From positions 1 to 64,000 of IMG/VR virus record IMGVR_UViG_3300027754_000039: DNA of 64,000 bases; one strand, 5' to 3'. Below are positions 27,978 through 53,298 of this stretch, in pieces. How positions within the stretch are numbered: position 1 is the stretch's first letter; every line of letters starts with the position of its first letter. A program made the position numbers and the translations under genes. The notes below the pieces were generated by a model. That model did not search any database and was not told where the DNA came from. It saw nothing but the letters and a program-made list of their open reading frames with translations. This DNA is from a virus.

Positions 27978-27982
27978 AACTT

Positions 27983-31978: not shown

Positions 31979-32212
31979 TTATTCTTCAAAGTGTTCTAAA
32001 GATTTAATCAATGTATCATTTGCGAAACATTGATAAGCGGCCCATGACCCGAATACTGTAAAAGATAAATAGCCGTCTGGATCATCAAATTTATTTAAGA
32101 CTACTGCTTCAAATTTTGAATCAGTGTCAGCTTCATTTAAGTTATGAATAATGTTCCATAAATGATTTTCGTCTTCTGGCAATATGCCTACGTAAAAATT
32201 AATTTTTTTCAT
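31979..32212 (-). CDS. hypothetical protein
   Basis: 77 aa ORF. Confidence 0.6.
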   Translation of the reverse strand: MKKINFYVGILPEDENHLWNIIHNLNEADTDSKFEAVVLNKFDDPDGYLSFTVFGSWAAYQCFANDTLIKSLEHFEE

Positions 32213-32657
32213 TCTTTAATAATTTTGTAACCTCCTTATCAGTCTTACCATACTTTTTTATTATTTCCTTTACCGGATCTAAGCTGGTATCGCTATATAT
32301 ATCTAAATACTCTATAGCTTCTTTTTCACTGACTAAGAAGTGCTTTGACAGTAATTCAACCAGGTCTGAGTTATATTTATCTGTCGTCTTTCCTTTGATA
32401 TACTTATTATATTGCTTTTGTTTAGGGAGAATATCAGAGTATAGTTTATATACTTCTCTGGCATCTAACCCACCTATAGTATACTTTTGAAATTCATTAA
32501 TTAACTCAACAAAGTCCATATTCATAGATAGAAATCTATTTATCATGTATGGACTAAATGACTTACGATCTAATTCACTAAGTGAATCCCACTTAACCTT
32601 TTTATCTGTAATACCGGATAAATGATCAAATAGTGTTTTTGCCTTAAGCTCCGACAT
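32199..32657 (-). CDS. clamp loader small subunit (gp62-like)
   Basis: FSPYMINRFLS, KKQYNKYIK; close to the clamp loader gene. Confidence 0.75.
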   Translation of the reverse strand: MSELKAKTLFDHLSGITDKKVKWDSLSELDRKSFSPYMINRFLSMNMDFVELINEFQKYTIGGLDAREVYKLYSDILPKQKQYNKYIKGKTTDKYNSDLVELLSKHFLVSEKEAIEYLDIYSDTSLDPVKEIIKKYGKTDKEVTKLLKNEKN

Positions 32658-32889: not shown

Positions 32890-33177
32890 TTAATTTATTT
32901 GTTTAGCAATATCTTGCTTTGCTATTTTAATTATTTGATTTTTAGTTTCAATTGAAACTCTACTCCAATTTATCATATCCCATTTATCTTGCATTTCCTG
33001 CTTAGGAGTAGGTTCAGCTTCATCAATCCAAACTTTAGTTTTAAGGTCTTCTAATCGTTTCTCTAAATGAGGTACTTTTGATTTATAAAAAGCTAAATGA
33101 TTTAAATGTTCCATGTTTAACCCTGATTCTTTTTTACGGCTAAACAAATTTTTAATAAAATTTACAATTTGTTTCAT
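32890..33177 (-). CDS. hypothetical protein
   Basis: 95 aa ORF. Confidence 0.6.
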   Translation of the reverse strand: MKQIVNFIKNLFSRKKESGLNMEHLNHLAFYKSKVPHLEKRLEDLKTKVWIDEAEPTPKQEMQDKWDMINWSRVSIETKNQIIKIAKQDIAKQIN

Positions 33178-34106
33178 TAGTATAATTCGTTTATAATTTT
33201 AATAAACATTGCCATTACATTGATCTCTTTATCAACGGCAAATGAATCTTGATATTGAGCTTCTGCTATGATAAGAATTACTCCAGCTATATGACCAACA
33301 GCAAATGTATCTACATTGTCATACAGATGCCTGTATAATGCAGTGTAGTCTTTTACTTGAGAATCAGCTAGCAACTGGCGAATTGAAGTAAACAACTGTT
33401 TCTTGTCTGGTTTAGAGACTAGCAATTCGATAATCTTGTCTGCATAATTAGCTTCAATTAAAGATTGTTTATCTATTTGTAATTCACCTTTTACTACTTG
33501 CCTCTGACAGGAATTAAGTATCCGTCTTATGTCTGGATATCCTGCATTAATTATTGAAACCAGGTCTTCAGGTTTCGCCGTAACCCCTTCTGTTTGAAGT
33601 ATTGAATTTACTCGAATAGCCACATCTTTCTTTGACGGTGGAGTGATACCAAATACTTGACATCGTGACTGAATAGGATCAATTATCTTTTCAACATAGT
33701 TGCAAGTTAAAATAAACCTAGTAGTCTTTGAAAACGTTTCCATCAAATTTCGAAGAGCTGCTTGAGCGTTTGGGGTCAAGTAGTCGGCTTCATCTAGGAT
33801 GATTAATTTCCATTGACGAAATCCGATTGTGCTAGCAAAGCTTTTAATTTTCTCTCTAACTGTATCTACATTGTTTTCGTCTGATGCATTAATATACATC
33901 AAATCACAATCTATATTTTTTGCTATTAGTTTAGCTAGAGTAGTCTTACCAGTTCCTGCAGTACCATAAAATAACAAATGCGGAACATCACCACTCTCTA
34001 TATAGATTTTTACTTTTTCTATGATAGAAGTATTTCCTACATATCCATCTAATTGCTCCGGTCGATATTTTTCAGTCCAAAGAGTATGTTCGTTATTTCC
34101 GTACAT
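33177..34106 (-). CDS. clamp loader large subunit (RFC/gp44 AAA+)
   Basis: WTEKYRP, GTAGTGKT, DEAD, SRC. Confidence 0.95.
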   Translation of the reverse strand: MYGNNEHTLWTEKYRPEQLDGYVGNTSIIEKVKIYIESGDVPHLLFYGTAGTGKTTLAKLIAKNIDCDLMYINASDENNVDTVREKIKSFASTIGFRQWKLIILDEADYLTPNAQAALRNLMETFSKTTRFILTCNYVEKIIDPIQSRCQVFGITPPSKKDVAIRVNSILQTEGVTAKPEDLVSIINAGYPDIRRILNSCQRQVVKGELQIDKQSLIEANYADKIIELLVSKPDKKQLFTSIRQLLADSQVKDYTALYRHLYDNVDTFAVGHIAGVILIIAEAQYQDSFAVDKEINVMAMFIKIINELY

Positions 34107-34281: not shown

Positions 34282-34995
34282 TTAAGCAATAGTCAATTTA
34301 ACTAAATAATATGATGAAGAGTATTCAGCATTTTCAAAAGTTACTTTTGCTAATCCTTTAGAAGACACTTCTAACATTCCTGTCGCGTCTGCATTTGCAT
34401 TTAAAATTTCTTTAAACAATTTAGCAGAGAAACATACAGTATCCATTTGCTTAGACTCTTTAGGAGTTGCCTTAAATACAATACGATTGGTATTCACACT
34501 TGAGTGATTGATAATAATTTTAGTTTCTTCCCCATCACATTGAACACCAAAGTTATCAGACTCAGGTAACGCATTAGCTGCTTTCTTAAAGTTATTTGCA
34601 AAGTCTTTATTCAATTCAATCTTAACATCAAAGTCAGGAAGTGATTTTAAATTAGGAACTTGACGAATAACAGATAAGTCTGCTAACATGTAAGTTACAT
34701 TAGTACTTGAATCTTTGAAATTGATAGAATACATTTTCTTTTCTACCTCTCCAAAAGTTACATCTATTTTCTCATCAACTGCTGATAACATCTTAACCAA
34801 TTGAGAAGTTGCATAAACTCCTAACTCAGCATCTGGTGCATCAAAGTTATTAAGAACTACTTCACCAATTACATTCTGATCAGTGCTAATGAATTTAGTA
34901 GTCAGCTTTTTGTCTTCTACTACCAACTTTGCCGAGTCTGTATTACCTGCTAAGAAGTAACGATTCACAAAGCCTATAAATTTTGATTTTTCCAT
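34282..34995 (-). CDS. sliding clamp (gp45-like)
   Basis: 237 aa two-domain size, LGVYxTSQL motif, adjacent to clamp loader. Confidence 0.8.
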   Translation of the reverse strand: MEKSKFIGFVNRYFLAGNTDSAKLVVEDKKLTTKFISTDQNVIGEVVLNNFDAPDAELGVYATSQLVKMLSAVDEKIDVTFGEVEKKMYSINFKDSSTNVTYMLADLSVIRQVPNLKSLPDFDVKIELNKDFANNFKKAANALPESDNFGVQCDGEETKIIINHSSVNTNRIVFKATPKESKQMDTVCFSAKLFKEILNANADATGMLEVSSKGLAKVTFENAEYSSSYYLVKLTIA

Positions 34996-35043: not shown

Positions 35044-36672
<1,629 letters not shown>

Positions 36673-38022
36673 TTATATATTTTCTAATTCACCCCACCCA
36701 CCTAACGCATCTTCAATACGCTGTTGCGGAACTTCTTCTGTTTCTTTTGTTTCATCCACTACTTCTTTCTTTTCTCTTTTCTTAACTACTTTTGGTTCCA
36801 CAAATGAATTAAAGTCGGCAAAGTTAAAAAATTCTTCATGAACTTCTTTTGCAATATTCATTACATTCTCTCCGCCAAATTTAACATAGAATTGTCTATA
36901 TCTTTCATACACTGCAATTGGATCAGAGGATACAAACATTTCTTCCATTGACTTTAAAATTTGTATTAAGTCATTTGGAATTAATTCTGCTAGAACTTCT
37001 AATGGACAAGTATTAACTAACTTCTCTACCTGATCTGCAGTGTATACATACATATACAAATTATGATAAGTTAATCGAGTAACTGCTTCTGTCGAATAAT
37101 TTTTTACTGTATCCCATTTCAAATACTCAACACCTGGATGATTAATTAATGACGGAACGTGTCCTGTAGTTGGATATACAATATTACTTGAATCTTTAGG
37201 AAAGTATAACATATTAAATACTTGATCTTTCCAATTAGGACTCCATACCATTTGCCCAAAGATAGGATACTGACCTGGAGATGAACTATCTGTTGATACA
37301 GTAATTCTATTATTAGTATGTATATTTAATAATTTCTGTAATTGAGATAAAATGAAAAAGTCAGATACTTTTGAAATGCCTAATAAGTGAACCCAAGTAT
37401 TATATTCTTTATCAAACTCTTTTTCTTTAATCATTAAAGCTAGAATATACATAAAGTCTACAAGACGTCTAGATGAACCTATACACCATCCACCAAACTC
37501 CATATCTCTAACAGTCTTATACCAATGAGAAAACTCTACAGGATTAGAACCTTGAACTACATTTAAAAATTTAGTCTTACCAGTTTGTTTCTTTTCAAAA
37601 TATTTAAAATTATCTAAACTGATATCTAAAGACTCTTGGAACCTTCCTTCATAAGTCACGCGTGGCGGAATATCTATATTACAAGCAATGTCTGAATTGT
37701 TTTCTAACCATTCAAAAATTCTATCACGTAATGCCATATCCCATTTCAATGCACCAGTTGCAATTTGGAATCCACCAGAGTCGCCAAATACTAAAGTATC
37801 TTGCAATCCCCAAGTTTGTCTAATGTTATCTTTCTTATAAAGATGACCTGCTGTCATCAAGAAGTATTTATATCTCCACTCCTCAGGAGTACGGTCATCC
37901 CAAAATCTATAAGGGACACCGGGTGCTACTTCCATATCTTTAGTTAGTGGAGAAGCATAAGCTCCACTCGACAAACTAGGGAAATAGCAGAGTTTTTTTG
38001 GACTATTTGATTTTAATATCAT
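36673..38022 (-). CDS. dpdA: DNA 7-deazaguanine transglycosylase (DpdA, TGT fold)
   Basis: DSGGFQ, DIPP, VQG, HLLG and DSSSP motifs; lacks the CxCxxC zinc site of tRNA TGT; near folE/queD/queE. Confidence 0.85.
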   Translation of the reverse strand: MILKSNSPKKLCYFPSLSSGAYASPLTKDMEVAPGVPYRFWDDRTPEEWRYKYFLMTAGHLYKKDNIRQTWGLQDTLVFGDSGGFQIATGALKWDMALRDRIFEWLENNSDIACNIDIPPRVTYEGRFQESLDISLDNFKYFEKKQTGKTKFLNVVQGSNPVEFSHWYKTVRDMEFGGWCIGSSRRLVDFMYILALMIKEKEFDKEYNTWVHLLGISKVSDFFILSQLQKLLNIHTNNRITVSTDSSSPGQYPIFGQMVWSPNWKDQVFNMLYFPKDSSNIVYPTTGHVPSLINHPGVEYLKWDTVKNYSTEAVTRLTYHNLYMYVYTADQVEKLVNTCPLEVLAELIPNDLIQILKSMEEMFVSSDPIAVYERYRQFYVKFGGENVMNIAKEVHEEFFNFADFNSFVEPKVVKKREKKEVVDETKETEEVPQQRIEDALGGWGELENI

Positions 38023-38073: not shown

Positions 38074-38805
38074 TTAATTTGAAAACTTTTTACCTTTATT
38101 CCAAGGAATTCTAGGCACATAAGTTCCATTTTTAATTTTTTCTTCTTTATTTCGTTTTCTAGAAGCCATACATTTTTTAACAATTTCAAGGTCTTTCATA
38201 GAATTTATCTTTTTAGATAAAGAATTTTTAATTTTATTTACAGTTTCCAAACTTGGCGAAATGCCTTTATTCCATGCAGTTCTTCCGGTGGGTCGACCCT
38301 TCATATTTTCATAATGTACTAATCGAGCGGGTGTCATAACTTTTTTCTTTCCTTTAGTAGCTTTAGATAGTTTAGCTTTATATTCATCACTTCTCGGATG
38401 CTTTAATCCTAAATTAATATCTCGTAATTTTTGTTTTGTATCTTCCGACATAATTCGGCCAGTCATTTGTTTAGTTAAATAAGGAATCCATTTATCTTTT
38501 GCTTCTTGATACATTCTACTCGACGGAGTGTAATTACTTAGTTTATATCTTAACGCATTTTTTAAATTACACATACGAAAAAATGCATGAGCTAATTTAT
38601 TAGAATCAATATATACTCGTATTAATAGCCAATGGCATATAAAATGCTCACGAGCTGTTAATAAAACTAAATTTTCTTTTTTATTACTGCCTCCTAAACA
38701 TTTAGGTACAATATGGTGCTTTTCATAATACACACTAGTTCCTTTAATTCGATTTTCAGTTCGAGCTTTTTCTATTATTTGATTGTATATTTTTTCGTAA
38801 TTCAT
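38074..38805 (-). mobile_element. free-standing HNH homing endonuclease with NUMOD3-like repeats
   Basis: EKHHIVPKCLGGSN..NLV.LTAREH..CH; AWNKG and PWNKG repeats. Confidence 0.88.
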
Positions 38806-38945: not shown

Positions 38946-39950
38946 TTATGAAATAGTACCAAATATTTCTTTAATAATTGGCTCTGAATCGTAAAAGGTT
39001 TCAAATAAATGTGTCTGCTGTTCTTTAATTAAAGGAATATAAAAATCATAATTTTCAATTAGATGTTTTATCTTACCTGTTAAGTCTGGAGCGAATTTAC
39101 TGTAATTGAAAATATTTGCCGTCCATTCAGCTGGATATCTAAAATCTAAAGGAACTAAATCTTTTAACCCTTCAATATCAGGTACCAAAGGTATAGTGCC
39201 TAGCAAAAAACATTCATAAATTTCTTTTCCAATATTTGGAGAGTCGTAAGGAAGAAATGCAACTTTAGCTTTAGCAATTTGATTTAATAATTGATCTCGA
39301 GTTAATGGAAGACGTTCTTGAGCAAATATAACTTTTATATCTTTGTACACTCGTATAAAGTCGTATACAATCTGTTCCTGTAGCGTTGAATACTTATTCC
39401 ATGGAAAGATAACCATGCTTTGTTTAAAGTAACTATCCTTATATAAAGACATATCCAATATTAAATACTCTAATGGAAAAGGCATTACATTTAATCTTTC
39501 AGGAAATACAAATTTAGAAACGTATATACGAAACTGCTCTTTATGAAATTCAGATATAAAAAATGATTTATCTAAACAACGAAAAGATGCCCTTTCATGT
39601 ACCTTTCTCCAATTACGATCATTTAATGGACGATACTCTGAATCTAAATTTAAGTAACACCCACGTGACCAAAAGCCAATCATCTTAACCGGCACTTGAT
39701 AATTTTCTGACCAGTGTCTAACATACACAGTCATTGACGACCAAGCATTAGGAAACACAAATAAATCGTCAGGAGTAATTACTCCATTCTGAAAATGTTG
39801 CTTAATTAATGAAGGGTCCATAATTTCTACAACTTCAAACTCATTAGGCTTTGTAGACTCTACATACCCATGAAGAATAGAAGCTAAATGACTTTCCCAA
39901 GAATTCTCGTCAGTAATAAGTGGGTCTATTACTACATAAACTCTTTTCAT
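38946..39950 (-). CDS. GT-B glycosyltransferase-like protein, degenerate paralog of 43597..44619
   Basis: Shared blocks VKxxGxxxxG, DxxFxxSxxHK, LTxxxxxxxxAKA, PxEWT; ETFG replaced by PNIG. Confidence 0.65.
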   Translation of the reverse strand: MKRVYVVIDPLITDENSWESHLASILHGYVESTKPNEFEVVEIMDPSLIKQHFQNGVITPDDLFVFPNAWSSMTVYVRHWSENYQVPVKMIGFWSRGCYLNLDSEYRPLNDRNWRKVHERASFRCLDKSFFISEFHKEQFRIYVSKFVFPERLNVMPFPLEYLILDMSLYKDSYFKQSMVIFPWNKYSTLQEQIVYDFIRVYKDIKVIFAQERLPLTRDQLLNQIAKAKVAFLPYDSPNIGKEIYECFLLGTIPLVPDIEGLKDLVPLDFRYPAEWTANIFNYSKFAPDLTGKIKHLIENYDFYIPLIKEQQTHLFETFYDSEPIIKEIFGTIS

Positions 39951-40303
39951 AGCTTTTCTACTCTAGCTCCATTTTCCATATCTTCCCAACATTCAACCCA
40001 ATCACATTCAAATCTTTCTAGCAATTCTCTAGATAACATTTCACAAGACTTAGGCCCAAACTCTAAAGTTCTAGATTGATTATCTGAATATTGATTATGT
40101 AAATAATTTAATACATCCCGTTTAAACATAATAAACTCTACATCTCGATCATCGTGATTAACCATTTTAGCTAAAGTAAAATGAAACATATGTCTATGTC
40201 TATCTGCTAAAAATGCAACTTCTGGAAACAACTCTGCTGCTTTTGGGAAGTTGTGCATTCCGTCTACTGCTAGCTTAACTAATACTACCGTCTTTGTTAT
40301 CAT
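39947..40303 (-). CDS. dpdL: QueD-like T-fold protein, DpdL-like (putative CDG decarboxylase)
   Basis: LADRHRHMF fits the LxxxHRHxF signature I recall for DpdL; SCEML and WED T-fold motifs. Confidence 0.7.
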   Translation of the reverse strand: MITKTVVLVKLAVDGMHNFPKAAELFPEVAFLADRHRHMFHFTLAKMVNHDDRDVEFIMFKRDVLNYLHNQYSDNQSRTLEFGPKSCEMLSRELLERFECDWVECWEDMENGARVEKL

Positions 40304-40436
40304 GTTTTTCTTTTATTATTTTTAAATTTTCTTCTGCTATCTTAGCAATAATTTCTTTAATTTCAGACATTGAATGCTCATAATCTTTTTCCAACTCAAA
40401 ATTAATTTCGTCTGTTTTAACTTTTAATTTTATCAT
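40275..40436 (-). CDS. 53-aa hypothetical protein (not in ORF track)
   Basis: Hand translation MIKLKVKTDEINFELEKDY...; ATGA overlap with the clpP stop. Confidence 0.55.
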   Translation of the reverse strand: MIKLKVKTDEINFELEKDYEHSMSEIKEIIAKIAEENLKIIKEKHDNKDGSIS

Positions 40437-41017
40437 ACTATTTCATCTATTAGTTTATACTGCAAAGCTTCTTCTGGAGACATATACCAATCAAATTTAA
40501 CTTTTTTACTATCGTCTAATTGCTTTCGCTTCAATGAAGTTTTGCTAATTAAATAATCGTCATACACTTTCATTATTCGTTTAGTCTCTTGAAGATTTTC
40601 ATTCAAGGTAGAAAGCTTTTCATATGGCAATTGATCTAGGCATTCGTGATACATAAAAGTCGATAACTTATGACCAAATCGTTGATGACCTGAAACTAAA
40701 ATTAATAAAGCCATTGACATTGCCGATCCATAACAATATGTATGCACAGGAGTTTTAGATTTTTCTATAACACCAATTAAAGCAAATCCATCATATACCG
40801 AACCTCCCATGCTATTAACAATTAATTTGATAGGAGTTCTTGTATACTCAACTACATTATCTTCATTCTCGTCGTCAATTTCATTAATGTCACAAATGTC
40901 TTGCATTATTTCACTAACCGTTAACTCATCAACCTCTCCACTTAATATAAGTGTTCGTGATAAATTTTCTTTATCTAATCTAGATGTCTTACTTTTTTTC
41001 TGTGCTATTTTATTCAT
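40433..41017 (-). CDS. clpP: ClpP-like serine protease
   Basis: NSMGGSV..G, AMSMA catalytic Ser, MYHE His, EALQYKLID. Confidence 0.88.
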   Translation of the reverse strand: MNKIAQKKSKTSRLDKENLSRTLILSGEVDELTVSEIMQDICDINEIDDENEDNVVEYTRTPIKLIVNSMGGSVYDGFALIGVIEKSKTPVHTYCYGSAMSMALLILVSGHQRFGHKLSTFMYHECLDQLPYEKLSTLNENLQETKRIMKVYDDYLISKTSLKRKQLDDSKKVKFDWYMSPEEALQYKLIDEIV

Positions 41018-41027
41018 AACTTAAATT

Positions 41028-43595
41028 TTAACTAAATGAAAAGAAATCTGCCATATTATCATTCTTAGGTATGCCTCCCCAATTCAAAGCTTGATAAAAA
41101 TCACCTAACTTATTTTCCAAAGAAGCAATAAATATCCTTTCATAATCAATATATTGAGTTATAAATTTAATAATTTCTTTTGGATCTTCAAAGCCCTTTA
41201 CAGCTAAAGTATCTAATCCTAATGGATTTTGTTTAAGATAAGTCCATTTAATTTTTTCTCCATCCAATATAGGTTGTGAAGCCGTAATATTATAATATAT
41301 CATTAAGTCATTATAATTCAATGCCGACTTAGCGTGTATTGGAGTTCCTTTAACTCTGTTACCAAATACTTGACCTTTAATCTTTTTAGTTTTGTATTTG
41401 GATAATTCTTTAATACCTGTCGGAAACATAATGTCAAACATAGGTTTAGTTTTCATATCTTCTCGAAATGCTAACACCTTATCATCAATTTTTTTCTTTT
41501 CAGAAATATTTAAAATGTCAATTAAGATACCTGACATAAACTCTCTAAATGCTTTTGGAAAATTACTTCTTACAACATCCATACCTTTAACATCTAACTT
41601 CCACTCTTTAGCTCCGTTAGTCATTTGTGATATTAATACTCCTTTCTCAGAAATAATTTTTTGTGCATAACGTTTTTTTGCAATCCACAAACCAGATTCA
41701 GATACATACTCTTGTTTAATATTTAAAAAGTGTTTATCTGAATTTAAAAAGTGCTTACAAAATTCATCCCAAGATGCATTAATATAATTTTCAACTACTT
41801 GAGAAGTTTTATAAGTAACGTCAATCTTCTCTTGCTTGGTCATCTCTTTACCCATCTTAGTTTCCATTAAGTCAATAATTGGCTTAGCTGAAAAGTAATT
41901 GGAATCTGTATCTACATAAATTACATACTCTTTATCAACTCCTGTCTGTTTAGTAAACCATTCATTGCCTTTCATCATGGCGTGACGAATAACTTGCTGA
42001 CCTGTTAATGTAATTGACTCTGCATTATCTAAATCATGAAATCTAAATCCAGGAGCTCCTAAAGCTCCATATAAAGAGTTATTTACAATCTTCATAGTGT
42101 GCTGTCTGGAGTCAAAGAATTTAGACATATCAGCATTACCCTCCTTACCATACTTCTTTGCTAAGCCACGATATTCTTCACGCTCGCCCATCCAAGTTTC
42201 TAATATAGAAGGAATCAATCCACTTTTGGAATAATCATATACAACACCAATAGAAGATACTGTAAATTTATTATCTACTAACCATTGTCTAAATTCTACA
42301 ATTGGAATCATTACGTGCTTAGCACCTGATTTAATTTTAGCATTGGCATTGGAAAAAGAGTCAGTCCAAAAATCATTTTTAACTGCATCCCAATTTTCTA
42401 CTCTACCTACTTTGGTCTCTGGAGATATATTTAACGTTCTAATAATAGAAGGATATAGTGAAGCCATATCCTCATCAAACACCCATTCATATAAACCTGG
42501 TATTGGATCTTTTACATAAGCTCCAGCAAAATCATTAGAATGTGGATCTGTCGATTCTGCAGAGTGATCTCTTAACTTTCTATTAGGAGCAATAATGCCT
42601 AAACGTTTCATATACGTTACACAGGCTCCATCTAAATATCTAGTTGTAAAATAAACATCTTCATAAGGCACATGACCTTTATGACAGATACCTCGAGCCA
42701 AAGATAGGAATTTAAGTTTTTCATCTAACTCTAAAACTAATATAACGTCATTGATATTATATGCAATAAACTTTTCAGGATCTGTTTTATATAAATGATC
42801 CAAAGTTCCTTCATATTCAATTTTACCTTTACCTAATTCTTTTTTAGAAATAGAATCTAACGAATAAGACACCTCTTCAGAGTATGTAAATAATTTATAC
42901 AATGCCATGTAATCTAAACAACTAACACCCATAATTCTATAACGATTACGATGTTGAAGATAAATTACTTCATTGATTGGAGATAGCGAATCGGCATATT
43001 CCTTACCTACTACCTTTGTCATACGATTATATAAATAAGGAATATCAAAGAAATCAATATTCCATCCTGTTATAATGGTCGGTCTTATTTCTTGATAGTG
43101 AGCTAGAAATCTAGAAATCAATTCGTGTTCAGTTTGAACTACTTCTAAAATTAAATTAGCATCTGTATATGGCTTTAAAGTTCTTTTAGCATCGACAATA
43201 ATAGCTACTGACTGATTGCCTACTCTATCATGAAAGGCAATTGAAGTCATTGGTTGCCAAGCATCTTCTGCTGACGAAAAGCCTCCTTCGGTATTTACTT
43301 CAATATCTATAAATAATTCTCTATGTCCTATTGAAGGCTCATCTGTTTGAAAATATAAATCAATTAAAGTTCTAGTCTCTGGATTAATATCTGATTCATA
43401 TATATGACCTTTTTGAACATCCATTTCATCCCAATCAGTTACTCTATCAACTTTCGATCCATCTAAAGCTGCATGACGACCATGAGAATTTTTCTTATAA
43501 GCATATTTTTTATATGGGAATTTAAGATGACCATTTTTGTCATCCCAGACGTGCATAATATTTTTATGCTTTTGATATGCTATATTTTGGTACAT
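41028..43595 (-). CDS. family B DNA polymerase (gp43-like)
   Basis: DIEV, GWNIDFFD, DMASLYPS, KIVNNSLYG, YVDTDS. Confidence 0.97.
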   Translation of the reverse strand: MYQNIAYQKHKNIMHVWDDKNGHLKFPYKKYAYKKNSHGRHAALDGSKVDRVTDWDEMDVQKGHIYESDINPETRTLIDLYFQTDEPSIGHRELFIDIEVNTEGGFSSAEDAWQPMTSIAFHDRVGNQSVAIIVDAKRTLKPYTDANLILEVVQTEHELISRFLAHYQEIRPTIITGWNIDFFDIPYLYNRMTKVVGKEYADSLSPINEVIYLQHRNRYRIMGVSCLDYMALYKLFTYSEEVSYSLDSISKKELGKGKIEYEGTLDHLYKTDPEKFIAYNINDVILVLELDEKLKFLSLARGICHKGHVPYEDVYFTTRYLDGACVTYMKRLGIIAPNRKLRDHSAESTDPHSNDFAGAYVKDPIPGLYEWVFDEDMASLYPSIIRTLNISPETKVGRVENWDAVKNDFWTDSFSNANAKIKSGAKHVMIPIVEFRQWLVDNKFTVSSIGVVYDYSKSGLIPSILETWMGEREEYRGLAKKYGKEGNADMSKFFDSRQHTMKIVNNSLYGALGAPGFRFHDLDNAESITLTGQQVIRHAMMKGNEWFTKQTGVDKEYVIYVDTDSNYFSAKPIIDLMETKMGKEMTKQEKIDVTYKTSQVVENYINASWDEFCKHFLNSDKHFLNIKQEYVSESGLWIAKKRYAQKIISEKGVLISQMTNGAKEWKLDVKGMDVVRSNFPKAFREFMSGILIDILNISEKKKIDDKVLAFREDMKTKPMFDIMFPTGIKELSKYKTKKIKGQVFGNRVKGTPIHAKSALNYNDLMIYYNITASQPILDGEKIKWTYLKQNPLGLDTLAVKGFEDPKEIIKFITQYIDYERIFIASLENKLGDFYQALNWGGIPKNDNMADFFSFS

Positions 43596-43596
43596 C

Positions 43597-44619
43597 TTAT
43601 TTTTCTGATTTAATTATATCAATCATTGTTTGTGCATTGTTATTCCACTTTGCTGTCCACTCAAAAGGAACAGTTAAGTCACAACTGTCAAATAGAAAAT
43701 CAATATCTTTAACTCTGTCATATACATTGACAGACGGTACCATTTCAGGGCAACATGCTCTATTTGGAACTAATATATTACAATTAAAGAAAATAGCTTC
43801 TTGTATTGTATATCCAAAAGTTTCTTGATAACAGGTTGATAAATACCAACGAGCCTTTGCCATTAAAGTAAAATATTCTTTTTTAGTTAAGTTAAATTTA
43901 AACTCGATATTTCTAGGCAGATTAGTTCCACAATCTTTTACAGGACCTGAAGACGTAACTATTATTTTTTTATTTGTGCTATTGGCATATTGAATTAACT
44001 CGCCTAAGCCTTTTTCATTACACCACCTATGAGGCCAAATAACAAAATCTTCTTTTACAACATATCCAATCTCTTCATGAAACTCTTGCATATAATTCAA
44101 GTCCCAAATTAAACCTGTCGTATGCACTGTAGCTGTATTCAATCCAAAATATTCACATACATTATATTTGTGATCGTCGCTACCTACAAAAATGCCATCA
44201 CAAATTTGATGATATCCTAATTCAGAAGCGTCTGCCCAATGACCTAATTTTTGTACAAAGTCTGTGCTATCAGCTCTACCAGCATAATTAATTCCATATA
44301 CCTTAACATCAATATCTTGAAGCTCTGCCATGTATTTAATCATTTCAATACCTGGGAAGAATATATCTCCTATTAGAAATGCATCTCCATTATTAACTTT
44401 GCCTTCATTGAAAAGGTCTGCAATCATTTGCAACTGTGCTGCTTTGAATTTGCAAGTATTAACAATATCTAAAAATTGACCACGCTTGATTTCTTTGTCA
44501 ATTTCTACCTTCGGATACAATGAAATGTCTACTTTAGGGTAAATAGCTGCATTCATCATTTGGGTATAGCGAGCTGGTAACTCTTCTATAGGAATGTAAA
44601 TTATTTTATTTTTTGTCAT
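43597..44619 (-). CDS. GT-B glycosyltransferase, candidate DNA-modifying
   Basis: HRWCNEKG, QETFGYTIQEA, PEM; abuts the polymerase gene. Confidence 0.78.
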   Translation of the reverse strand: MTKNKIIYIPIEELPARYTQMMNAAIYPKVDISLYPKVEIDKEIKRGQFLDIVNTCKFKAAQLQMIADLFNEGKVNNGDAFLIGDIFFPGIEMIKYMAELQDIDVKVYGINYAGRADSTDFVQKLGHWADASELGYHQICDGIFVGSDDHKYNVCEYFGLNTATVHTTGLIWDLNYMQEFHEEIGYVVKEDFVIWPHRWCNEKGLGELIQYANSTNKKIIVTSSGPVKDCGTNLPRNIEFKFNLTKKEYFTLMAKARWYLSTCYQETFGYTIQEAIFFNCNILVPNRACCPEMVPSVNVYDRVKDIDFLFDSCDLTVPFEWTAKWNNNAQTMIDIIKSEK

Positions 44620-44650: not shown

Positions 44651-46051
44651 CTATTCAAAAAAGCTAGAGATAGTTTTGTTTTCTTTTGGTAATTCTTTTT
44701 TAATTAAATTACCATTATCATCTGGAACTCCTAAGTAAGTAAATTGCTTTTCATGAAGTATTTGATACCAAGATTGATTGGTGTATATAGCTTCTATATC
44801 TGAAGTAAGATATATTGTTCCTTTTGTATTTTCCGTTCTAAAATAATCTTCTAAAGACATCCAAAACCCTTTATGCTCTTTTAAATAAGTATAAAGACGA
44901 TTGCGTGGTTCTTGTTTTGCTTGCACTCCACCAAAAGCATCTTCAACTAAATTTAACAAAGCTGTTTCATAATCTACTTTATATTGAGTAAATTCCAACT
45001 CTACTTTAGTCTCATCTACTTTCCAGGTATTATAAGCTGACCATATTATATCCGATACTTCTTTGGAATCTGCAACTATTAAATTGCTCATGCCTTGAAA
45101 ATTATAATGCCAATCATAATTGCGTAAAACAACTGTCGGCATAAATCGAAGAGCCTCTAAAACTGCAATACCAAAGGATTCATTTTTATAAGGCATAAAT
45201 GCTACTTTGGCAGATTGAATTATTTTTGCTTTCTCTTCTCCTACAACATCACATTTGATTTCATAATTGGTATGACCTATAGCAGCAAAGTCAGCTTCAA
45301 ACTTTTTAACGTGTGCAGAACGAGTTAGCACTTTTGCTTTTAACTCAACTCCATGCTTTGCTTTTATATCGGCCAGTACCTTAATATACATACCCGGATT
45401 CTTTCTATCCTCGTGTCTTCCTATATAGAGTACCCCTTCCTTCTCAAGATTGTATACGACGTTAGAATCGGTTAATGGATAAGGCTGAATATATAAATTA
45501 GGATTGGAGTAAGGCAATTTAGATAGTAGCTTTGCTTTATTTTGTTTAGTTTGTATCAATGTTGTAATTGGAAAATACATCATTTGCTCAATTAAATTAT
45601 AATAACAATCTTTAAATACTCCAGCTCCTAATTCTGGATTTATAGATTGACATTCATGAGCGTATGAACTAACTCTCATATGTTTATAAAGCTCTAATTG
45701 ATAACATACAAAAGCAGACTCTGTGTCATTGCAAATAACTAAATCATACTTATGATTAGCTAACGCTTTTACTATTGCAGTTCGAAAATTAATTGACTTT
45801 TCAAAATTAAAGCTGTCTGCAAATTGAAATAAATTGGAATGCTTACCATAAGACAATCGCTCTTGCTTGTCTGGATAGTAAACACTAATTCCAGATTCTT
45901 TTAGAAAATTTTCTTCAGGTTCTCCGTCACATATAACATCTATAAAATGCCCATGCTCTAATAAAGTTTCTACTACCCCCTTCATGAAAATTCCGTGTCC
46001 TGAACTAGGCCTAAAATTCATTCTGTTAATGATGAATGCTACTCTTTTCAT
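44651..46051 (-). CDS. GT-B (GT4-like) glycosyltransferase with C-terminal extension and clamp-binding-like motif
   Basis: GRHEDRKN, NESFGIAVLEA; ends NKTISSFFE. Confidence 0.8.
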   Translation of the reverse strand: MKRVAFIINRMNFRPSSGHGIFMKGVVETLLEHGHFIDVICDGEPEENFLKESGISVYYPDKQERLSYGKHSNLFQFADSFNFEKSINFRTAIVKALANHKYDLVICNDTESAFVCYQLELYKHMRVSSYAHECQSINPELGAGVFKDCYYNLIEQMMYFPITTLIQTKQNKAKLLSKLPYSNPNLYIQPYPLTDSNVVYNLEKEGVLYIGRHEDRKNPGMYIKVLADIKAKHGVELKAKVLTRSAHVKKFEADFAAIGHTNYEIKCDVVGEEKAKIIQSAKVAFMPYKNESFGIAVLEALRFMPTVVLRNYDWHYNFQGMSNLIVADSKEVSDIIWSAYNTWKVDETKVELEFTQYKVDYETALLNLVEDAFGGVQAKQEPRNRLYTYLKEHKGFWMSLEDYFRTENTKGTIYLTSDIEAIYTNQSWYQILHEKQFTYLGVPDDNGNLIKKELPKENKTISSFFE

Positions 46052-46410: not shown

Positions 46411-46766
46411 CTATCATTTACGCTACCAGAGGTTGCAAGTACTTTTAAAGCTACAATGTCAGGGACTTGAAATCCTAACAATCGCAAATCAGCTAAATCC
46501 ATACGAGTTAATCCTTTGGCCGTAATTTTTTTTCTTCTATTTGATTCGTGTTTAAATTTTAATAACTCAGCACACTTTTCATATTCTTCTAAATTGCTAT
46601 AATATATTATCAAGCAATCATAGATAAATTGTCTATCTGTATGTTTAGGTACATCATACTTACATACTAACCTAAATACATTATCAATCGTTTGCTTCGC
46701 TGACGGAAGTTCTTCTGCCATCACTAAAAACAAATTTAATCGATCTTGACGTTCGTCCGGAGTCAT
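46395..46766 (-). CDS. hypothetical protein with UVR-like motif
   Basis: EEYEKCAELLK. Confidence 0.6.
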   Translation of the reverse strand: MTPDERQDRLNLFLVMAEELPSAKQTIDNVFRLVCKYDVPKHTDRQFIYDCLIIYYSNLEEYEKCAELLKFKHESNRRKKITAKGLTRMDLADLRLLGFQVPDIVALKVLATSGSVNDSRAGK

Positions 46767-47398
46767 TAATCTAACTTATCTACGAAACGATAAAACTCAT
46801 TTCTAGCTGCTGGGTCAATTAAAAATGCTCCTGACATCTTTGAAGTCATCATTGTCGAGTCGTGACGTACACCTCTCACACAAGCACACATATGATTCGC
46901 TGCTACCATTACTGCTACACCTTTATTACCTTCACACACTGTATTGATATACTCGTGAATTTGCATAGTTAAATTTTCTTGAACCTGAGGTCTGCGAGCA
47001 AAATACTCTACAATACGATTTAGTTTAGACAATCCAATAACCTTACCATCTTCAGACGGAATATAAGCTACGTGTGCATATCCAATAAAAGGTAAATGAT
47101 GATGAGAGCAAAAAGACTTTACATCAATATTGCCTTGAAATACAATTCCATCATACTTATCTAAATTGTCAAATGCTGTAATTTTCGGAGCATCTTCATA
47201 ACAACCTTGAGCTAAATCATTAACAAAGGCTTTTGCAACTCGCATTGGAGTGTCTGAAGAGTTAGGATCGTTTTCCCAATCAATACCTAACGCAGTCATG
47301 TAAGCTCCATAATGTGAAGCTGCAGCTATAATCATAGCCTGCTTCTCTTCTTTAGTTCTAGGAATAGAAGAGTTAGCATATTTTAATAATTCTTTCAT
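46766..47398 (-). CDS. folE: GTP cyclohydrolase I
   Basis: [32 protein letters not shown], CxxxRG. Confidence 0.96.
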
Positions 47399-47434: not shown

Positions 47435-47767
47435 TTATAATGGTAATTCAATTTGAGTATTTTCTTTAAATACTGCTAGCAAATCAGACTCTCTGAAAAG
47501 AATATATTTTTCTTTGTTAAGTTTAATTTCTTGACCACCATATGCTGGTATCATTACTTCATCACCTTCTTTAACTGACATTGGAATTGAAACTCCATTC
47601 TGAGTATACAATCCAGCTCCTACTGAAATTACTTTTCCCATTTTAACGTCATCTGCAGTTGCAGTTTCTGGAATAATAATTCCTGATGCTGTTTTCTTTT
47701 CTTCTTTAGTTTTATGTTCTTTAACTAAAACTCTGTCGCCTAAAGGCTTAATTACTTTATTTTCCAT
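47435..47767 (-). CDS. groES: co-chaperonin GroES
   Basis: KPLGDRVLV, TASGIIIP, VGAG, ESDLLA. Confidence 0.95.
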   Translation of the reverse strand: MENKVIKPLGDRVLVKEHKTKEEKKTASGIIIPETATADDVKMGKVISVGAGLYTQNGVSIPMSVKEGDEVMIPAYGGQEIKLNKEKYILFRESDLLAVFKENTQIELPL

Positions 47768-47958: not shown

Positions 47959-48723
47959 TTATACTCCTCGTTTATCGTTATAAGCTACTATGTGAGCTCT
48001 TCCTGTGAAATTATAGCCTCTTTTAATACACTCTTCCATTACATAAGGATAGTTAGGTTGTAATTTATCTAGCGTATCTCCTGCTGGCATAACCCATACT
48101 TTATTTTTAGGTATGTCATGAGTTGCAATAAACTCTTCTATTTCATTCCACACTTCAGGATCGTTTCTATCTACAACTGGTTTGAAATGATAATCTAAAT
48201 GATACTCCATCATCTTTTTCATAACATCATGATTCATTCTAAATTTGTTATGTTGTGTGATAAGCTTTTCATTTACATCTACTCCTAATGGAGTTTCAGT
48301 TCCTAATTTTGGAATTGAGTTTTTAAACTTAGGTGATAGTGATATTAAATCTATTTTATAATTAGTTTCAATAAAATGGCTTCCTTCAGTTTCAATAGTA
48401 ACATACATTCCTCTCATACGTTTAGCTATATTAACTAATTCATCAACTAACTCAGGATGCATAGTTGGAGAACCACCTGATATCATTAAATGATTGATCT
48501 GAGGATTGGTTTCAAATAGTTCTTGAATAGCATTAAGAGTCCAAGTACCTTTCTCTGGATGAATACTTGTATACCAAGAATCACACCATCCTCCTTCTCC
48601 AAAGTAACATCTGTGAGTACAGCCTGTTGTTCTTACTAGAAAATGAGGACGACCTGCTCGTGAACCTTCAGTTTGAACGCAAGTATATGCTTCAATGATA
48701 GGTTGTATTTTATTATAGTCCAT
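47959..48723 (-). CDS. queE: 7-carboxy-7-deazaguanine synthase (radical SAM)
   Basis: QTEG, RTTGC, CDS, SGGSP, ETEG, SPK; Cys motif is Cx3Cx7C. Confidence 0.9.
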   Translation of the reverse strand: MDYNKIQPIIEAYTCVQTEGSRAGRPHFLVRTTGCTHRCYFGEGGWCDSWYTSIHPEKGTWTLNAIQELFETNPQINHLMISGGSPTMHPELVDELVNIAKRMRGMYVTIETEGSHFIETNYKIDLISLSPKFKNSIPKLGTETPLGVDVNEKLITQHNKFRMNHDVMKKMMEYHLDYHFKPVVDRNDPEVWNEIEEFIATHDIPKNKVWVMPAGDTLDKLQPNYPYVMEECIKRGYNFTGRAHIVAYNDKRGV

Positions 48724-49114: not shown

Positions 49115-49591
49115 TTATTCTTCATAGATGCTAGAGTTTTTATCATTTTCAAAACATTCTACTTTAATCACTTTACATCTACCAGCGTCTGTCTTAGATA
49201 ACACTTCATTAAAGTGATCATAAACTAATTTAGCATTGCTTTCAGCTCCCATTTTATCTAGTAAATGAACTTTAGCTAAACCCATTTGCCCTAATTGTTC
49301 AAATACATCAGCATAAGGATCGTCTTTTTGAATTAGTAAAGTATGATCCCACATATGATCCATCCATGACTTAAGACCATTGCCTACTGGTTTGTCTTTA
49401 AACCCTGAATAGTCTACAATCCAATTCATATCGTCTAACTGTTTATTAACGTCAGGTTCATTGGAGGCGAACCATACTTTAAATTTTAACGCATATCCAT
49501 GTAATAATTGACAGTGTGAATGTTGAGCTTTCCACTGTCTAATTGCCACGCTATAGTTATCAAAAGTTTTAGTACTTAAATACTGTGCCAT
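49115..49591 (-). CDS. queD: 6-carboxy-5,6,7,8-tetrahydropterin synthase
   Basis: HCQLLHGY, WIVDY, WDH, AE.NA, VECFEN. Confidence 0.88.
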   Translation of the reverse strand: MAQYLSTKTFDNYSVAIRQWKAQHSHCQLLHGYALKFKVWFASNEPDVNKQLDDMNWIVDYSGFKDKPVGNGLKSWMDHMWDHTLLIQKDDPYADVFEQLGQMGLAKVHLLDKMGAESNAKLVYDHFNEVLSKTDAGRCKVIKVECFENDKNSSIYEE

Positions 49592-49608: not shown

Positions 49609-50349
49609 TTAATTATTTTTTAATATAGACAATTCTTTGTAAAATACCAAATCTTTTTTAATTAAATTTTCAATTGAAATAAAATCAAATCCAGCATCTT
49701 TAAAAGTCTTTCCTATATATTGTCGAATATGTTGATAATATAAAGTATCATTTATCATTGCCTGAAAATGTGCTTTTCTTATTACCTTATGATTATGTTT
49801 ACATTTAGTTACTAAACTAGTATAGTCTATACCTATATAGTCGCCCATTATGTCAGAAGCAGAAAAATTACCAAATGGGGTTAAATATATTCCTTTACAT
49901 GCTATTCCAACATGATAGTTACTCCTAGCAAAATCAATTTGACTTAAAATTTCGCATTGGTTAGTATATAAATTTTTACATGCTATCATATTTTTATATG
50001 AAGACTTATCAGATTTTTTTCTTTTCTTTAATTTATCAATTAATTGAAGCCTATCAGATCCTACTATCCCTGCAAAGGTATTGCCCCCTTCCCCGCCTTC
50101 GGCTATATTATAAAACTCAGCCGAGTTTACTGCGTCGTATAATTTAATATATCGTTTTTCTGCTGAGCGAACTTCATCTTTACTATTAAAGTATTCAAGT
50201 ACTACTCTTGTGAAATTTTCACATCCATGTTTTTTAATAGCTCGCCGTAAAAGTTTACCTGAACCTAAATACTTATCCGTGTCTTTACCTTCATACTTAC
50301 CAATATACTTTTTATTATTAATAAGACAGGTTGTTATATATACAAACAT
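49609..50349 (-). mobile_element. free-standing GIY-YIG homing endonuclease (Seg-like)
   Basis: FVYIT...KKYIG...YLGSG...AIKKHG.ENF; FYNIAEGG. Confidence 0.88.
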
Positions 50350-51067: not shown

Positions 51068-51493
51068 TTAAAAATCCATATCCATATTATCTGCTTCAAT
51101 CTTCTTTACTTTCTTTTTAGCTTCTTCCATGCTATTTGGAGAAATTGCAAAAGATCCTTCTTCAGTCATGTCACCAAAAACTTTTCCTGCAGCAAGAGCT
51201 TTAGTTATTTGTTTCCAAAATTCATCAAAGAATTCGGCTTCAAAATAGAATTTTTTGTTTTTACTAGCCGTAGCAAGCATTTTGTCAAAAGCAGCATCTT
51301 CGCCGGCATCGTAAAGCTTTTTCAAGCTCATTAGTGTTTTTCCTGTTATAGCTACTTCTGCTTTAAGTGTTCCACTCTGGTGTGGGTAATATTCAAACCA
51401 ATAGTATTTTTTAGCTGGATCTAATGTATTTGCTTCTTTTAAAACTTTACGAATTTCTTCGCGAATTAATTGTTTAAATTCTTGTTTGTTCAT
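51068..51493 (-). CDS. hypothetical protein with LIREEI...LKE leader
   Basis: N-terminus MNKQEFKQLIREEIRKVLKEA. Confidence 0.7.
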   Translation of the reverse strand: MNKQEFKQLIREEIRKVLKEANTLDPAKKYYWFEYYPHQSGTLKAEVAITGKTLMSLKKLYDAGEDAAFDKMLATASKNKKFYFEAEFFDEFWKQITKALAAGKVFGDMTEEGSFAISPNSMEEAKKKVKKIEADNMDMDF

Positions 51494-51861: not shown

Positions 51862-53298
51862 TTAGCTAGCTGCTAATTGAGCGTTAATAAAAGTAGATTT
51901 AGTTCCAGCGTATCGTTTATGTTCAATCTTTCCTTGAGATTGAGATATACCATAAATGATAAATTCTTTAGCTAATCCAATTGCTGGCTGAGGTTCTCCT
52001 TCAAGATAATATACAAATCCTTTAATATGTGAAAAATAATCTCTTTTTCGATCGATAAAATCTTGAACAATTTCTTCAGGATTTTTTACAAACGTATGTT
52101 TTACAATTAAAAGCATTGCGTGTAAAAAAGTTTTAAAGTCTTTTTCTACAGGAGCAGTTACTTTAATTCTAGCTTCCTTACCTTTTGAACCAGCATCTTG
52201 AATTTCCGCTGCATCCTTTGCACTAATATAATATTGTACATCCGAATCTGCTCCTGCTGTTTGAAGTACTAATTTAGCATTATTAACTAACTCTTTTTGA
52301 CTTATAATAGTTCCACGTAAATCTTTTAATTTTTTAAATCCGTCATAATGTAAATCAATAACTCCGGTTGGATATTCTGCGGCTGCTATCATTCTATCAA
52401 AAAAGTTTTCTTTAGTAATTGTAGAAGTATTATCTTCAGCAGCTGCTTTTTTATCTTTTGCAGATACTCCATATCCATCTCCACGAAAATTTGTAGTTAA
52501 TATAGAATACATTGAATTTGCAGTATCTGCATTTCCAAATACTTTAGTTAAATTAGCTTTTAATTCTGAATCTTTAGAAGAATCGTTTAATTCAATAGCA
52601 TTTAACAATTCATAAAATTTACGAAGCTCATTAATATATTTAAATCGTCCGGCAAATCCTGACTGTGCCATTCTAATACCCGTTGGATCTTCTTTAACTT
52701 CCCAAACTCCGTCTGGTAGTTTTAAATCTTTTTCTGCCGTACCTCCTGACTTAGCTCCTTTAATAGCCATTACTGCCATCATTTCCCCTCGGCCCATTCC
52801 TTTAGGAGCTATGTCAAAAAACTCTTTCCAAAGATCCCAATCTGATTTGATAAAAGATTTTAAAGTGCTTTTTTGAAATGAGTCTATCCAAGATTTTTGT
52901 TTTTTCGGAAATTTTGAAAATATATCAAAAATAAACTTTTTAGCTTGATCAGGAACATCTGGCTCAATACCTTTAACTTCTCCATTAACCAATGCTTTAA
53001 ATTTATCTAAATTTGTAGCTTCTGTTAATAATCGTTTAAAAGGAGCTTTAACGCCCATTTCATCTAGAATTTCTTGCAGTCTAATCATATCTGATTTATT
53101 GCTCATATCCGGATATCCTTTATCACAACGATAGCTCCATTCAGTTACAATAGCATCAAAATCTAGTTTTGGCTCTTTTGAAGTTGAAGTTGTTTTAGTT
53201 TCGATAATAATTTCTTTAGGTGTGTCATTAACTGACTCGTTATTTGACTTTGCAAATAAAGCGTCTAAGTCAATTGATCTAGAAGTATCTTTCTTCAT
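51862..53298 (-). CDS. protein with EWSYR..KGYPD N-terminal domain and PD-(D/E)xK-like nuclease motif
   Basis: GRGE...KDL...WEVKE. Confidence 0.55.
   Translation of the reverse strand: MKKDTSRSIDLDALFAKSNNESVNDTPKEIIIETKTTSTSKEPKLDFDAIVTEWSYRCDKGYPDMSNKSDMIRLQEILDEMGVKAPFKRLLTEATNLDKFKALVNGEVKGIEPDVPDQAKKFIFDIFSKFPKKQKSWIDSFQKSTLKSFIKSDWDLWKEFFDIAPKGMGRGEMMAVMAIKGAKSGGTAEKDLKLPDGVWEVKEDPTGIRMAQSGFAGRFKYINELRKFYELLNAIELNDSSKDSELKANLTKVFGNADTANSMYSILTTNFRGDGYGVSAKDKKAAAEDNTSTITKENFFDRMIAAAEYPTGVIDLHYDGFKKLKDLRGTIISQKELVNNAKLVLQTAGADSDVQYYISAKDAAEIQDAGSKGKEARIKVTAPVEKDFKTFLHAMLLIVKHTFVKNPEEIVQDFIDRKRDYFSHIKGFVYYLEGEPQPAIGLAKEFIIYGISQSQGKIEHKRYAGTKSTFINAQLAAS

Follow-up and report, generated by a model that had tools for sequence, protein, structure and literature searches.

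The first 64,000 nucleotides of a 181.6-kb phage genome (IMG/VR record IMGVR_UViG_3300027754_000039), a stretch we refer to as the window, carry a glycosyltransferase gene (GT) that lies within a 7-deazaguanine DNA-modification module. The genome has a GC content of 32% and genes that are almost all on the minus strand, and a nucleotide search of the segment from 41 to 47 kb against GenBank phages gave no matches. Besides the GT, the module encodes FolE, QueE, QueD, DpdL, a DpdA-like protein and two further GT-B proteins (GT2 and GT3), and the genes for the B-family DNA polymerase (PolB) and the sliding clamp are interleaved with them (Table 1). The order FolE-GT-GT2-PolB-DpdL-GT3-DpdA-(GroEL)-clamp is kept in 13 metagenomic loci. 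A preliminary description of this DNA had proposed that the GT, through a C-terminal motif resembling that of PolB, rides the sliding clamp and acts on newly replicated DNA. Comparative evidence, drawn from homologues of the GT and from other T4-like phages, supports the interpretation of the GT as a putative clamp client.

The GT matches the Pfam family Glycos_transf_1 (PF00534) over residues 202-311 at 36.4 bits, against a gathering cut-off of 26.4, and scores 29.6 bits with PF13692, for which the cut-off is 27. With E-values of up to 0.01 allowed, these two and PF13439 were the only Pfam families found in the protein, and PF11440 and PF09198 were not among them. No family of the PHROG library matched the GT, and a BLASTP search of the phage proteome with the T4 alpha-glucosyltransferase returned nothing relevant. 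An AlphaFold model (predicted local distance difference test (pLDDT) 88.5, predicted template modelling score (pTM) 0.86) divides the protein into a core, a winged-helix-like domain, a low-confidence linker and the tail. Foldseek matched the core, which has the two Rossmann domains of the GT-B fold, to MshA, BshA, WaaG, PimA and glycogen synthase with E-values of 6e-14 to 1e-11. We searched 5.8 billion proteins for homologues of the GT and obtained 91, of which 82 have a complete C-terminus; column conservation and entropy were computed on an alignment of 33 sequences. In this alignment both glutamates of the EX7E motif (E291 and E299) are invariant, as are G211, R212, R216 and K217 of the G-R-x-x-x-R-K phosphate-binding loop. 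Because these residues are invariant, the GT looks active, and it can be described as an apparently intact GT-B enzyme of the retaining GT4 type.

When the C-terminal domain that follows the core was folded alone, VIA-align gave Z-scores of 5-6.4, and the top matches were nearly all winged-helix domains. Given the low Z-scores and an acidic isoelectric point (pI), we call the domain winged-helix-like and make no claim of DNA binding for it. A profile of this domain and the tail, run against 1.84 billion representative sequences, was essentially confined to this GT family, so the domain is not a portable module found on other enzymes.

The GT ends in ...PKENKTISSFFE, that is, in ...KENKTISSFFE, and PolB ends in ...PKNDNMADFFSFS. 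The preliminary description had seen in both an NxxΦxxFF motif at the extreme C-terminus, placed in the GT after an extension of roughly 90 amino acids beyond the GT-B core. Its reading of the GT terminus as NKTISSFFE agrees with the translation, and the extension measures 96 amino acids when the core is taken to end near residue 370, as in the AlphaFold model. PolB does contain NDNMADFF, but not at the extreme end, since SFS comes after the FF pair, which lies three residues before the terminus. The common pattern holds for its hydrophobic position and its FF pair and fails for its asparagine. Specifically, 63 of 79 GT homologues have F, L or I at the third position before FF, and all 79 have FF at positions 7-8 of the PCNA-interacting peptide (PIP) box, but position 1, which is N in this GT, is N, E, P, V or T in the homologues with no preference. 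We therefore rejected a canonical PIP box (QxxΦxxFF), as neither Q nor N is conserved at position 1.

Lack of conservation among homologues of the GT had been named in advance as grounds for giving up the idea of a functional tail. On the contrary, the FF pair is present in all 82 complete homologues, at identities down to 32%. Exactly one residue follows the pair in 79 of them (E in 48, G in 16, D in 8 and Q in 7), giving the consensus [FLI]-S-S-F-F-[EGDQ]. The other three tails are like that of PolB (FFSFYR, FFEFQ and FFEFE); two of these outliers, P0089 (NSFFEFQ) and P0090 (NNFFEFE), are near-copies of the PolB tail of the clade, for which the consensus is NDN[ML][AS][DN]FF[SE]F. Across the 33 aligned sequences F464 does not vary and F465 shows 97% conservation, with entropies of 0-0.2 bits at both positions. 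The sequence in front of the tail is of a different kind: residues 381-449 are conserved, while residues 450-460 are hypervariable, with a column entropy of about 3 bits and with indels, and the linker between body and tail is 11-15 residues long in the homologues. Model confidence is low in the same place, with a pLDDT of 58 for residues 451-460 and 49 for residues 461-466, and values below 50 at residues 458-462. An FF pair conserved behind a hypervariable, indel-rich segment is the pattern characteristic of a short linear motif carried by a flexible tether. Taken together, the comparative data make a strong case that the GT tail is more than a product of chance, and it is from them, not from the single genome, that the signal comes.

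Table 1. Features of the window that bear on the GT and its putative clamp-binding tail, with related genes of other phages.
Feature	Coordinates	Strand	Details
Glycosyltransferase (GT)	44651..46051	minus	466 aa; PF00534; 91 homologues; body, linker and tail
GT-B catalytic core of GT, residues 1-370, GT4-like retaining	44942..46051	minus	AlphaFold, Foldseek, EX7E
EX7E motif of GT, E291..E299	45155..45181	minus	both Glu invariant
Winged-helix-like C-terminal domain of GT, residues 381-445	44717..44911	minus	H-E-H-H-E-E; pI 5.2
Variable linker of GT, residues 446-460	44672..44716	minus	entropy and pLDDT; low confidence at roughly 450-462
GT tail ISSFFE, putative sliding-clamp-binding motif	44654..44671	minus	FF in 82/82 complete homologues
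B-family DNA polymerase (PolB)	41028..43595	minus	855 aa; phrog_262 E 5e-180; Pfam DNA_pol_B
PolB tail NDNMADFFSFS	41031..41063	minus	conserved in 10 related loci
gp45-type sliding clamp, presumed docking partner	34282..34995	minus	237 aa; phrog_223 'DNA polymerase processivity factor' E 4e-13
Clamp loader large subunit, gp44-like	33177..34106	minus	phrog_168 E 1e-84; BLASTP T4 gp44 E 2e-33
Clamp loader small subunit, gp62-like	32199..32657	minus	phrog_225 E 2e-20
DpdA-like DNA transglycosylase	36673..38022	minus	449 aa; DSGGFQ at 37765..37782
DpdL-like T-fold protein	39947..40303	minus	118 aa; LADRHRHMF at 40184..40210
GTP cyclohydrolase I (FolE)	46766..47398	minus	PF01227 E 6e-50
QueE-like radical SAM enzyme	47959..48723	minus	phrog_2076 E 3.5e-51; TIGR03365 match below cut-off
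QueD-like 6-carboxytetrahydropterin synthase	49115..49591	minus	CQLLHGY; phrog_2389 E 1.4e-32
GT2, second GT-B-like protein	43597..44619	minus	340 aa; without tail motif; weak PF00534 and phrog_4356
GT3, third protein, paralogue of GT2 type	38946..39950	minus	334 aa; BLASTP ACP17 GT E 7e-11
DpdA2-type transglycosylase with PolB-like tail, BUCT-ZZ01	L001:9337-10587		
DpdA2-type transglycosylase with PolB-like tail, BUDD	L016:5974-7287		
DpdA2-type transglycosylase with PolB-like tail, Ps15	L019:1483-2697		
DpdA2-type transglycosylase with PolB-like tail, ACP17	L031:7001-8275		
gp26-like hub protein, ACP17	L031:12102-12863		phrog_150
gp26-like hub protein, Ps15	L071:916-1677		phrog_150
gp26-like hub protein, BUCT-ZZ01	L037:7844-8554		phrog_150

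The DpdA-like protein of the module bears a tail of the same kind, VHEEFFNF (36820..36843), which is internal and followed by an extension rich in K and E. In each of the nine orthologues that we aligned, V-x-x-[EN]-F-F-[DN]-[FYT] occurs near the end of the protein; most have a short lysine-rich extension after the motif, and the one on L010 stops at ...ASEFFDFS. Because the motif is shared, we propose both the base-exchange enzyme and the GT as clamp clients.

A second lineage offers an independent view of the same arrangement. In the Synechococcus phage BUCT-ZZ01, the genes for FolE, a GT homologue, a DpdA2-type transglycosylase, DpdL and GT2 are consecutive, with overlaps of 4 bases between FolE and GT and 8 bases between GT and DpdA. 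This GT homologue is 33% identical to ours over residues 1-340, and its alignment does not include the winged-helix domain. Its tail reads SLEDFFND, and the other tails are SLDSFFD in DpdA, TLDDFFS in PolB and, before an acidic run, LEKFFDD in the gp55 homologue, so that all four proteins carry L-[DE]-x-FF. We scored all proteins of a genome against the tail of the cognate PolB using a BLOSUM matrix; among the 235 proteins of BUCT-ZZ01 the GT came second and DpdA fourth, separated by the acidic tail of the single-stranded DNA-binding protein (SSB). In three more T4-like phages no protein of the genome other than PolB itself matched the PolB tail as well as DpdA did: the tails of PolB and DpdA are SLDDLFE and TLDELFE in ACP17, SLESLFG and SLEELFG in BUDD, and SLEDLFGW and SLDDLFG in Ps15. 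The flavour of the tail, LF or FF, and even its last residue thus covary between PolB and DpdA.

Tails such as these are well known from phage T4, where the hydrophobic-acidic C-termini with which gp43, gp33 and gp55 bind gp45 are highly similar, can be interchanged and sit on divergent linkers (PMC2988020; PMC7892883). In the T4 record, gp43 ends in ASLDFLFG and gp55 in SLDFLYEAND. A conserved FF behind a divergent linker is the architecture of the clamp epitopes of gp55, gp33 and gp43, and it supports the clamp reading of the GT tail. The GT has the further marks of a client with a T4-type sliding-clamp-binding motif: a C-terminal peptide that is hydrophobic-aromatic and polar, a linker that is divergent and flexible by entropy and pLDDT, a cognate gp45-type clamp gene, and a likeness to the cognate polymerase, which appears in the comparisons within the clade and with BUCT-ZZ01 and is weak in this genome alone. 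Like the T4 clients, these proteins have a short, polymerase-like hydrophobic-acidic peptide after a divergent linker, and the LF tails of ACP17, BUDD and Ps15 are nearly identical to theirs in style. Unlike them, they are DNA-modifying enzymes (GT and DpdA) rather than factors of replication or transcription, the flavour in this clade is S-S-F-F-[EGDQ] or D-F-F-S-F, and docking on the clamp is a prediction made from sequence. On the best explanation, the GT tail and the C-terminus of the phage's own PolB, [ML]-[AS]-[DN]-F-F-[SE]-F, would belong to one class of peptide. The GT tail is probably a sliding-clamp-binding peptide, of a type that would tether DNA-modifying enzymes to the replisome. 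For the explanation as a whole, an active GT with a clamp-docking tail in a deazaguanine module that is coupled to the clamp, we estimate a probability of roughly two in three. DNA as the substrate of the GT seems to us likely as well, though we hold this part with somewhat less confidence. Action of the GT on newly replicated DNA fits the position of the DpdA/DpdL module beside PolB and the clamp.

Several observations weigh against this explanation. Within this genome the likeness between PolB and GT amounts to Φ-x-x-FF only. We compared the tail pattern [LIMFV]xxFF.{0,3}$ with shuffled tails for the 232 minus-strand proteins, and PolB and GT were the only two to fit it, against 0.47 expected, which at P ~0.09 is not significant alone; by BLOSUM score against the PolB tail, the GT is only about 3rd to 5th of 242. 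The DpdA tails of KVP40, nt-1 and pf16 are unlike the PolB tails of those phages, and in BUDD the GT homologue lacks a tail altogether. The acidity of the winged-helix-like domain (pI 5.2) argues against DNA contact by that domain. The clamp owes its identity only to a PHROG profile and to its context, in which it adjoins the gp44- and gp62-like loader genes; an hhalign comparison with T4 gp45 and a search of PDB sequences with a clamp-family profile gave nothing significant. The chemistry is a further difficulty. The only ThyA-family gene of the genome, which lies outside the window (genome 145162..146412; L014:1495-2745), scores as a true thymidylate synthase (294 bits to TIGR03284), leaving no known acceptor base evident, and 7-deazaguanine, the expected product of DpdL, has no hydroxyl or amine group to which a sugar could obviously be attached. 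Finally, gp26-like baseplate-hub proteins (phrog_150) end in GL[DE]xFF[VGA] in ACP17, Ps15 and BUCT-ZZ01, so that FF tails are not confined to the replisome.

The hub proteins, which are not known clamp clients, also lend weight to the alternative that the tail docks on some other partner (the polymerase, the gp32-like SSB, the DpdA-like protein, GT2 or GT3, or the enzyme's own winged-helix domain as a latch) and that a modification complex forms without the clamp. The acidic winged-helix-like domain resembles protein-binding winged helices (Rpa2-WH, ScpA-WH, ESCRT-II) as much as DNA-binding ones, and SSB tails are hydrophobic-acidic too: the gp32-like SSB of this phage (59917-60705) has an aromatic-acidic tail, ...VASAFDNLFNSK, reading SAFDNLFNSK, and that of BUCT-ZZ01, also aromatic-acidic, ends in DDDFFKSLLED. 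However, the tail has its closest counterparts in the tails of polymerases, which are bound to the clamp in T4 and RB69 (PMC2988020), and the gp55 homologue of BUCT-ZZ01 bears the same motif. Moreover, the tails of DpdA follow PolB through the switch between LF and FF, whereas the FF ends of the gp26-like proteins are constant whatever the flavour of PolB and serve as a negative control for the covariation. We consider docking on a partner other than the clamp unlikely.

A second alternative is that the GT does not act on DNA at all: it would glycosylate glycans, lipids or proteins, or make a soluble glycoside, and its C-terminus would serve folding, membrane attachment or oligomerization. Its structural neighbours MshA, BshA, WaaG and PimA are indeed GT4 enzymes that work on small molecules, lipids or glycans, and the genome offers no evident acceptor base, with neither a hydroxymethylase signature nor QueC. 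There is also a separate GT-rich region at 26-29 kb. This run (26035-29365) consists of a GT2-family gene of 207 amino acids and two GT4-like genes of 439 and 460 amino acids, and is presumably what the preliminary description called the glycan operon. Its statement that the GTs there lack the motif is correct and extends to the other GTs of the window; none of those at 26035, 26658, 27983, 43597 and 38946 has an FF tail. Besides this lack of tails elsewhere, two points speak against this alternative. In two lineages whose GTs are only 33% identical, the gene stays linked to those for FolE, DpdA and DpdL, with stop/start overlaps in BUCT-ZZ01, and a hypervariable, low-confidence linker before the tail would not be expected of a structural C-terminus. 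We regard this alternative as improbable.

The known kinds of Clp degron include hydrophobic C-terminal tags. That the tail is such a degron, timing the late removal of PolB, DpdA and GT by a phage ClpP-like protease (40433..41017) with a host unfoldase, is very improbable, for although the gene directly downstream of PolB is of the ClpP family (PF00574, E 2e-22), it also matches prohead-protease families, BUCT-ZZ01, ACP17, BUDD and Ps15 keep their tails in other gene contexts, and clamp binding is well established for polymerase tails of this type (PMC2988020).

Clamp-tethered modification of phage DNA is known in kind. PCNA, for its part, has clients with a PIP box (QxxΦxxFF), such as DNMT1, which is recruited to replication foci. 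The GT tail is similar to a PIP box in its hydrophobic residue three positions before the aromatic pair, and in both cases the clamp would couple DNA modification to replication; it differs in that the homologues have no conserved Q or N, the motif is at the extreme C-terminus and the clamp is of the gp45 type. The precedent closest to the GT is the T4 alpha-glucosyltransferase, which co-purifies with gp45 according to Sommer 2004, as cited, and is confirmed to do so in PMC13216743. It is thought to act directly after replication (PMC13216743; PMC6024577), and a 2026 study concluded that it is mainly expression, and not chiefly clamp binding, that sets the alpha/beta ratio of glucosylation in T4 (PMC13216743). 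It matches what is proposed for the GT in being a T4-type phage enzyme of the GT-B fold that glycosylates DNA, has its gene among those for replication and associates with the clamp. Unlike the GT, it belongs to another Pfam family (PF11440), has no recognizable tail (...FKEQFDIITK) and takes 5-hydroxymethylcytosine as its acceptor, a base for which this phage shows no pathway.

The module itself resembles the DpdA/DpdL systems of Cellulophaga phage phiST and ACP17 (PMC10516641) in having FolE, QueD and QueE without QueC, a DpdL with the LxxxHRHxF signature, and a putative transglycosylase with the DSGG motif beside the polymerase. In the DpdL-like protein, LADRHRHMF fits the DpdL signature LxxxHRHxF (PMC10516641). 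Searches of the genome for QueC (PF06508) and ThyX (PF02511) found neither. We located the DpdA-like gene only through its DSGGFQ motif, at residue 81 of the protein, which is spanned by a local BLASTP match to the DpdA of BUCT-ZZ01. PF01702 (TGT) matched neither this protein nor anything in a six-frame search of the genome; the L010 orthologue matches it with an E-value of 3.6e-4, at 20.1 bits and thus under the cut-off of 26.3. Another candidate for DpdA, a 478-amino-acid protein at 51862..53298, was rejected, as it has no family match and no DSGG motif; its short match to Flavobacterium phage immuto is uninformative. In immuto, where replacement of G is complete, we detected no homologue of the DpdA-like protein or of PolB.

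The published DpdA/DpdL scheme (PMC10516641) includes neither a glycosyltransferase nor a link to the clamp, in contrast to the one to three GT-B genes and the tails described here. Reconstitution with DpdA and DpdL alone failed (PMC10516641), and GT2 may be the component that was missing. Homologues of GT2 flank DpdA/DpdL in ACP17 (L031:8272-9300, E 4e-27), BUDD (L016:4815-5972, E 2e-32) and BUCT-ZZ01 (L001:10992-12158, E 6e-14). GT3 has no Pfam or PHROG match. It has a conserved end, [IF][IL]x[EQK][IL]F[GD] (IIKEIFGTIS here), that recalls LF-type clamp tails; there is no variable linker before it, and the end may be a plain terminal helix. In the literature that we searched we found no paper that ties DpdA to the sliding clamp and no description of a glycosylated deazaguanine in DNA.

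On the reading that we favour, FolE, QueD and QueE would produce 7-carboxy-7-deazaguanine (CDG), and DpdL and the DpdA-like transglycosylase would complete the pathway. The GT tail would dock on a hydrophobic patch of the gp45-type clamp (34282..34995), either one left behind by the polymerase or one shared with it, and the docked GT would stay on fresh DNA. With DpdA docking on the clamp in the same way, both base exchange and glycosylation would take place in cis on new DNA emerging from the polymerase. A more specific version is tentative, and we put it well short of an even chance: once DpdA has placed a 7-deazaguanine-derived base in the DNA, GT, GT2 and GT3 would add one or more sugars to that base, with GT and DpdA both riding the clamp. 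As 7-deazaguanine offers no obvious handle and ThyA scores as a true thymidylate synthase, the sugar may go on a CDG-derived intermediate or at another position. Hydroxymethylases are themselves ThyA homologues, so that the score does not exclude one; the ThyA homologue here is 416 amino acids long, with large insertions, and matches TIGR03284 in two or three stretches. A glycosyltransferase of deazaguanine already in nucleic acid has a counterpart in QTMAN/GTDC1, a GT4-type tRNA queuosine mannosyltransferase whose acceptor is the cyclopentenediol of queuosine. By description that enzyme is like the GT of this tentative version, a GT-B/GT4 enzyme acting on a 7-deazaguanine derivative in place; it differs in its tRNA acceptor, and this phage is without genes for the queuosine side chain.

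We also looked for a late sigma factor of the gp55 type, first with the T4 protein and next with a hidden Markov model of six gp55 homologues, and detected none in this genome. The genome thus offers no detectable gp55 as a reference for the clamp motif, and although its replisome genes are T4-like, its late transcription would be unlike that in T4. Two further sets of termini were noted. A 141-amino-acid protein of the window (51068-51493), without a family match, ends in ...KKKVKKIEADNMDMDF, a hydrophobic-acidic sequence similar to NDNMADFF of PolB. Four distant homologues of the GT, 34-43% identical within their group, have non-FF ends: ...SRQLKLF in P0103, ...TQLSLFTL in P0105, ...VKKLF in P0106 and ...VLTLF in P0109. 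These resemble the bacterial beta-clamp-binding motif, which is QL[SD]LF. Two viral scans and one alignment-based viral scan for the genomic context of P0103 and P0109 found nothing, and a metagenome scan for it yielded only one more member of the main clade.

Other kinds of genes lie among those for replication and modification. Homing-endonuclease genes (HNH-like and GIY-YIG) are dispersed across the module, at 38074-38805 and 49609-50349 in the window, and in a related locus (L002:12023-15505) the polymerase is in two open reading frames, of 554 and 306 amino acids, that flank an endonuclease-like frame of 284 amino acids. A full-length GroEL (35044-36654; phrog_5725, E 9e-177), a GroES-like gene (47435-47767) and the ClpP-family protease gene (40433-41017) are found in the same region.

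For phages, how an encounter with restriction or CRISPR ends is decided by DNA hypermodifications, and how the enzymes that make them keep pace with a fast replisome is poorly known. A putative clamp-docking tail on the GT, and on DpdA in at least four other T4-like lineages, suggests a simple mechanism in which modifiers are 'toolbelt' clients of the clamp, comparable to DNMT1 on PCNA, and gives a sequence-level basis to an idea that has so far rested only on pull-downs of the T4 alpha-glucosyltransferase with gp45. Clamp tethering, if true, would explain why guanine replacement is complete in some DpdA systems. The comparison also flags GT-B enzymes as unrecognized members of DpdA/DpdL modules and may point to a sugar-bearing deazapurine; a glycosylated deazapurine would, if confirmed, be a DNA hypermodification not yet described. 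More generally, the tail offers a searchable marker of DNA-acting enzymes in phage genomes.

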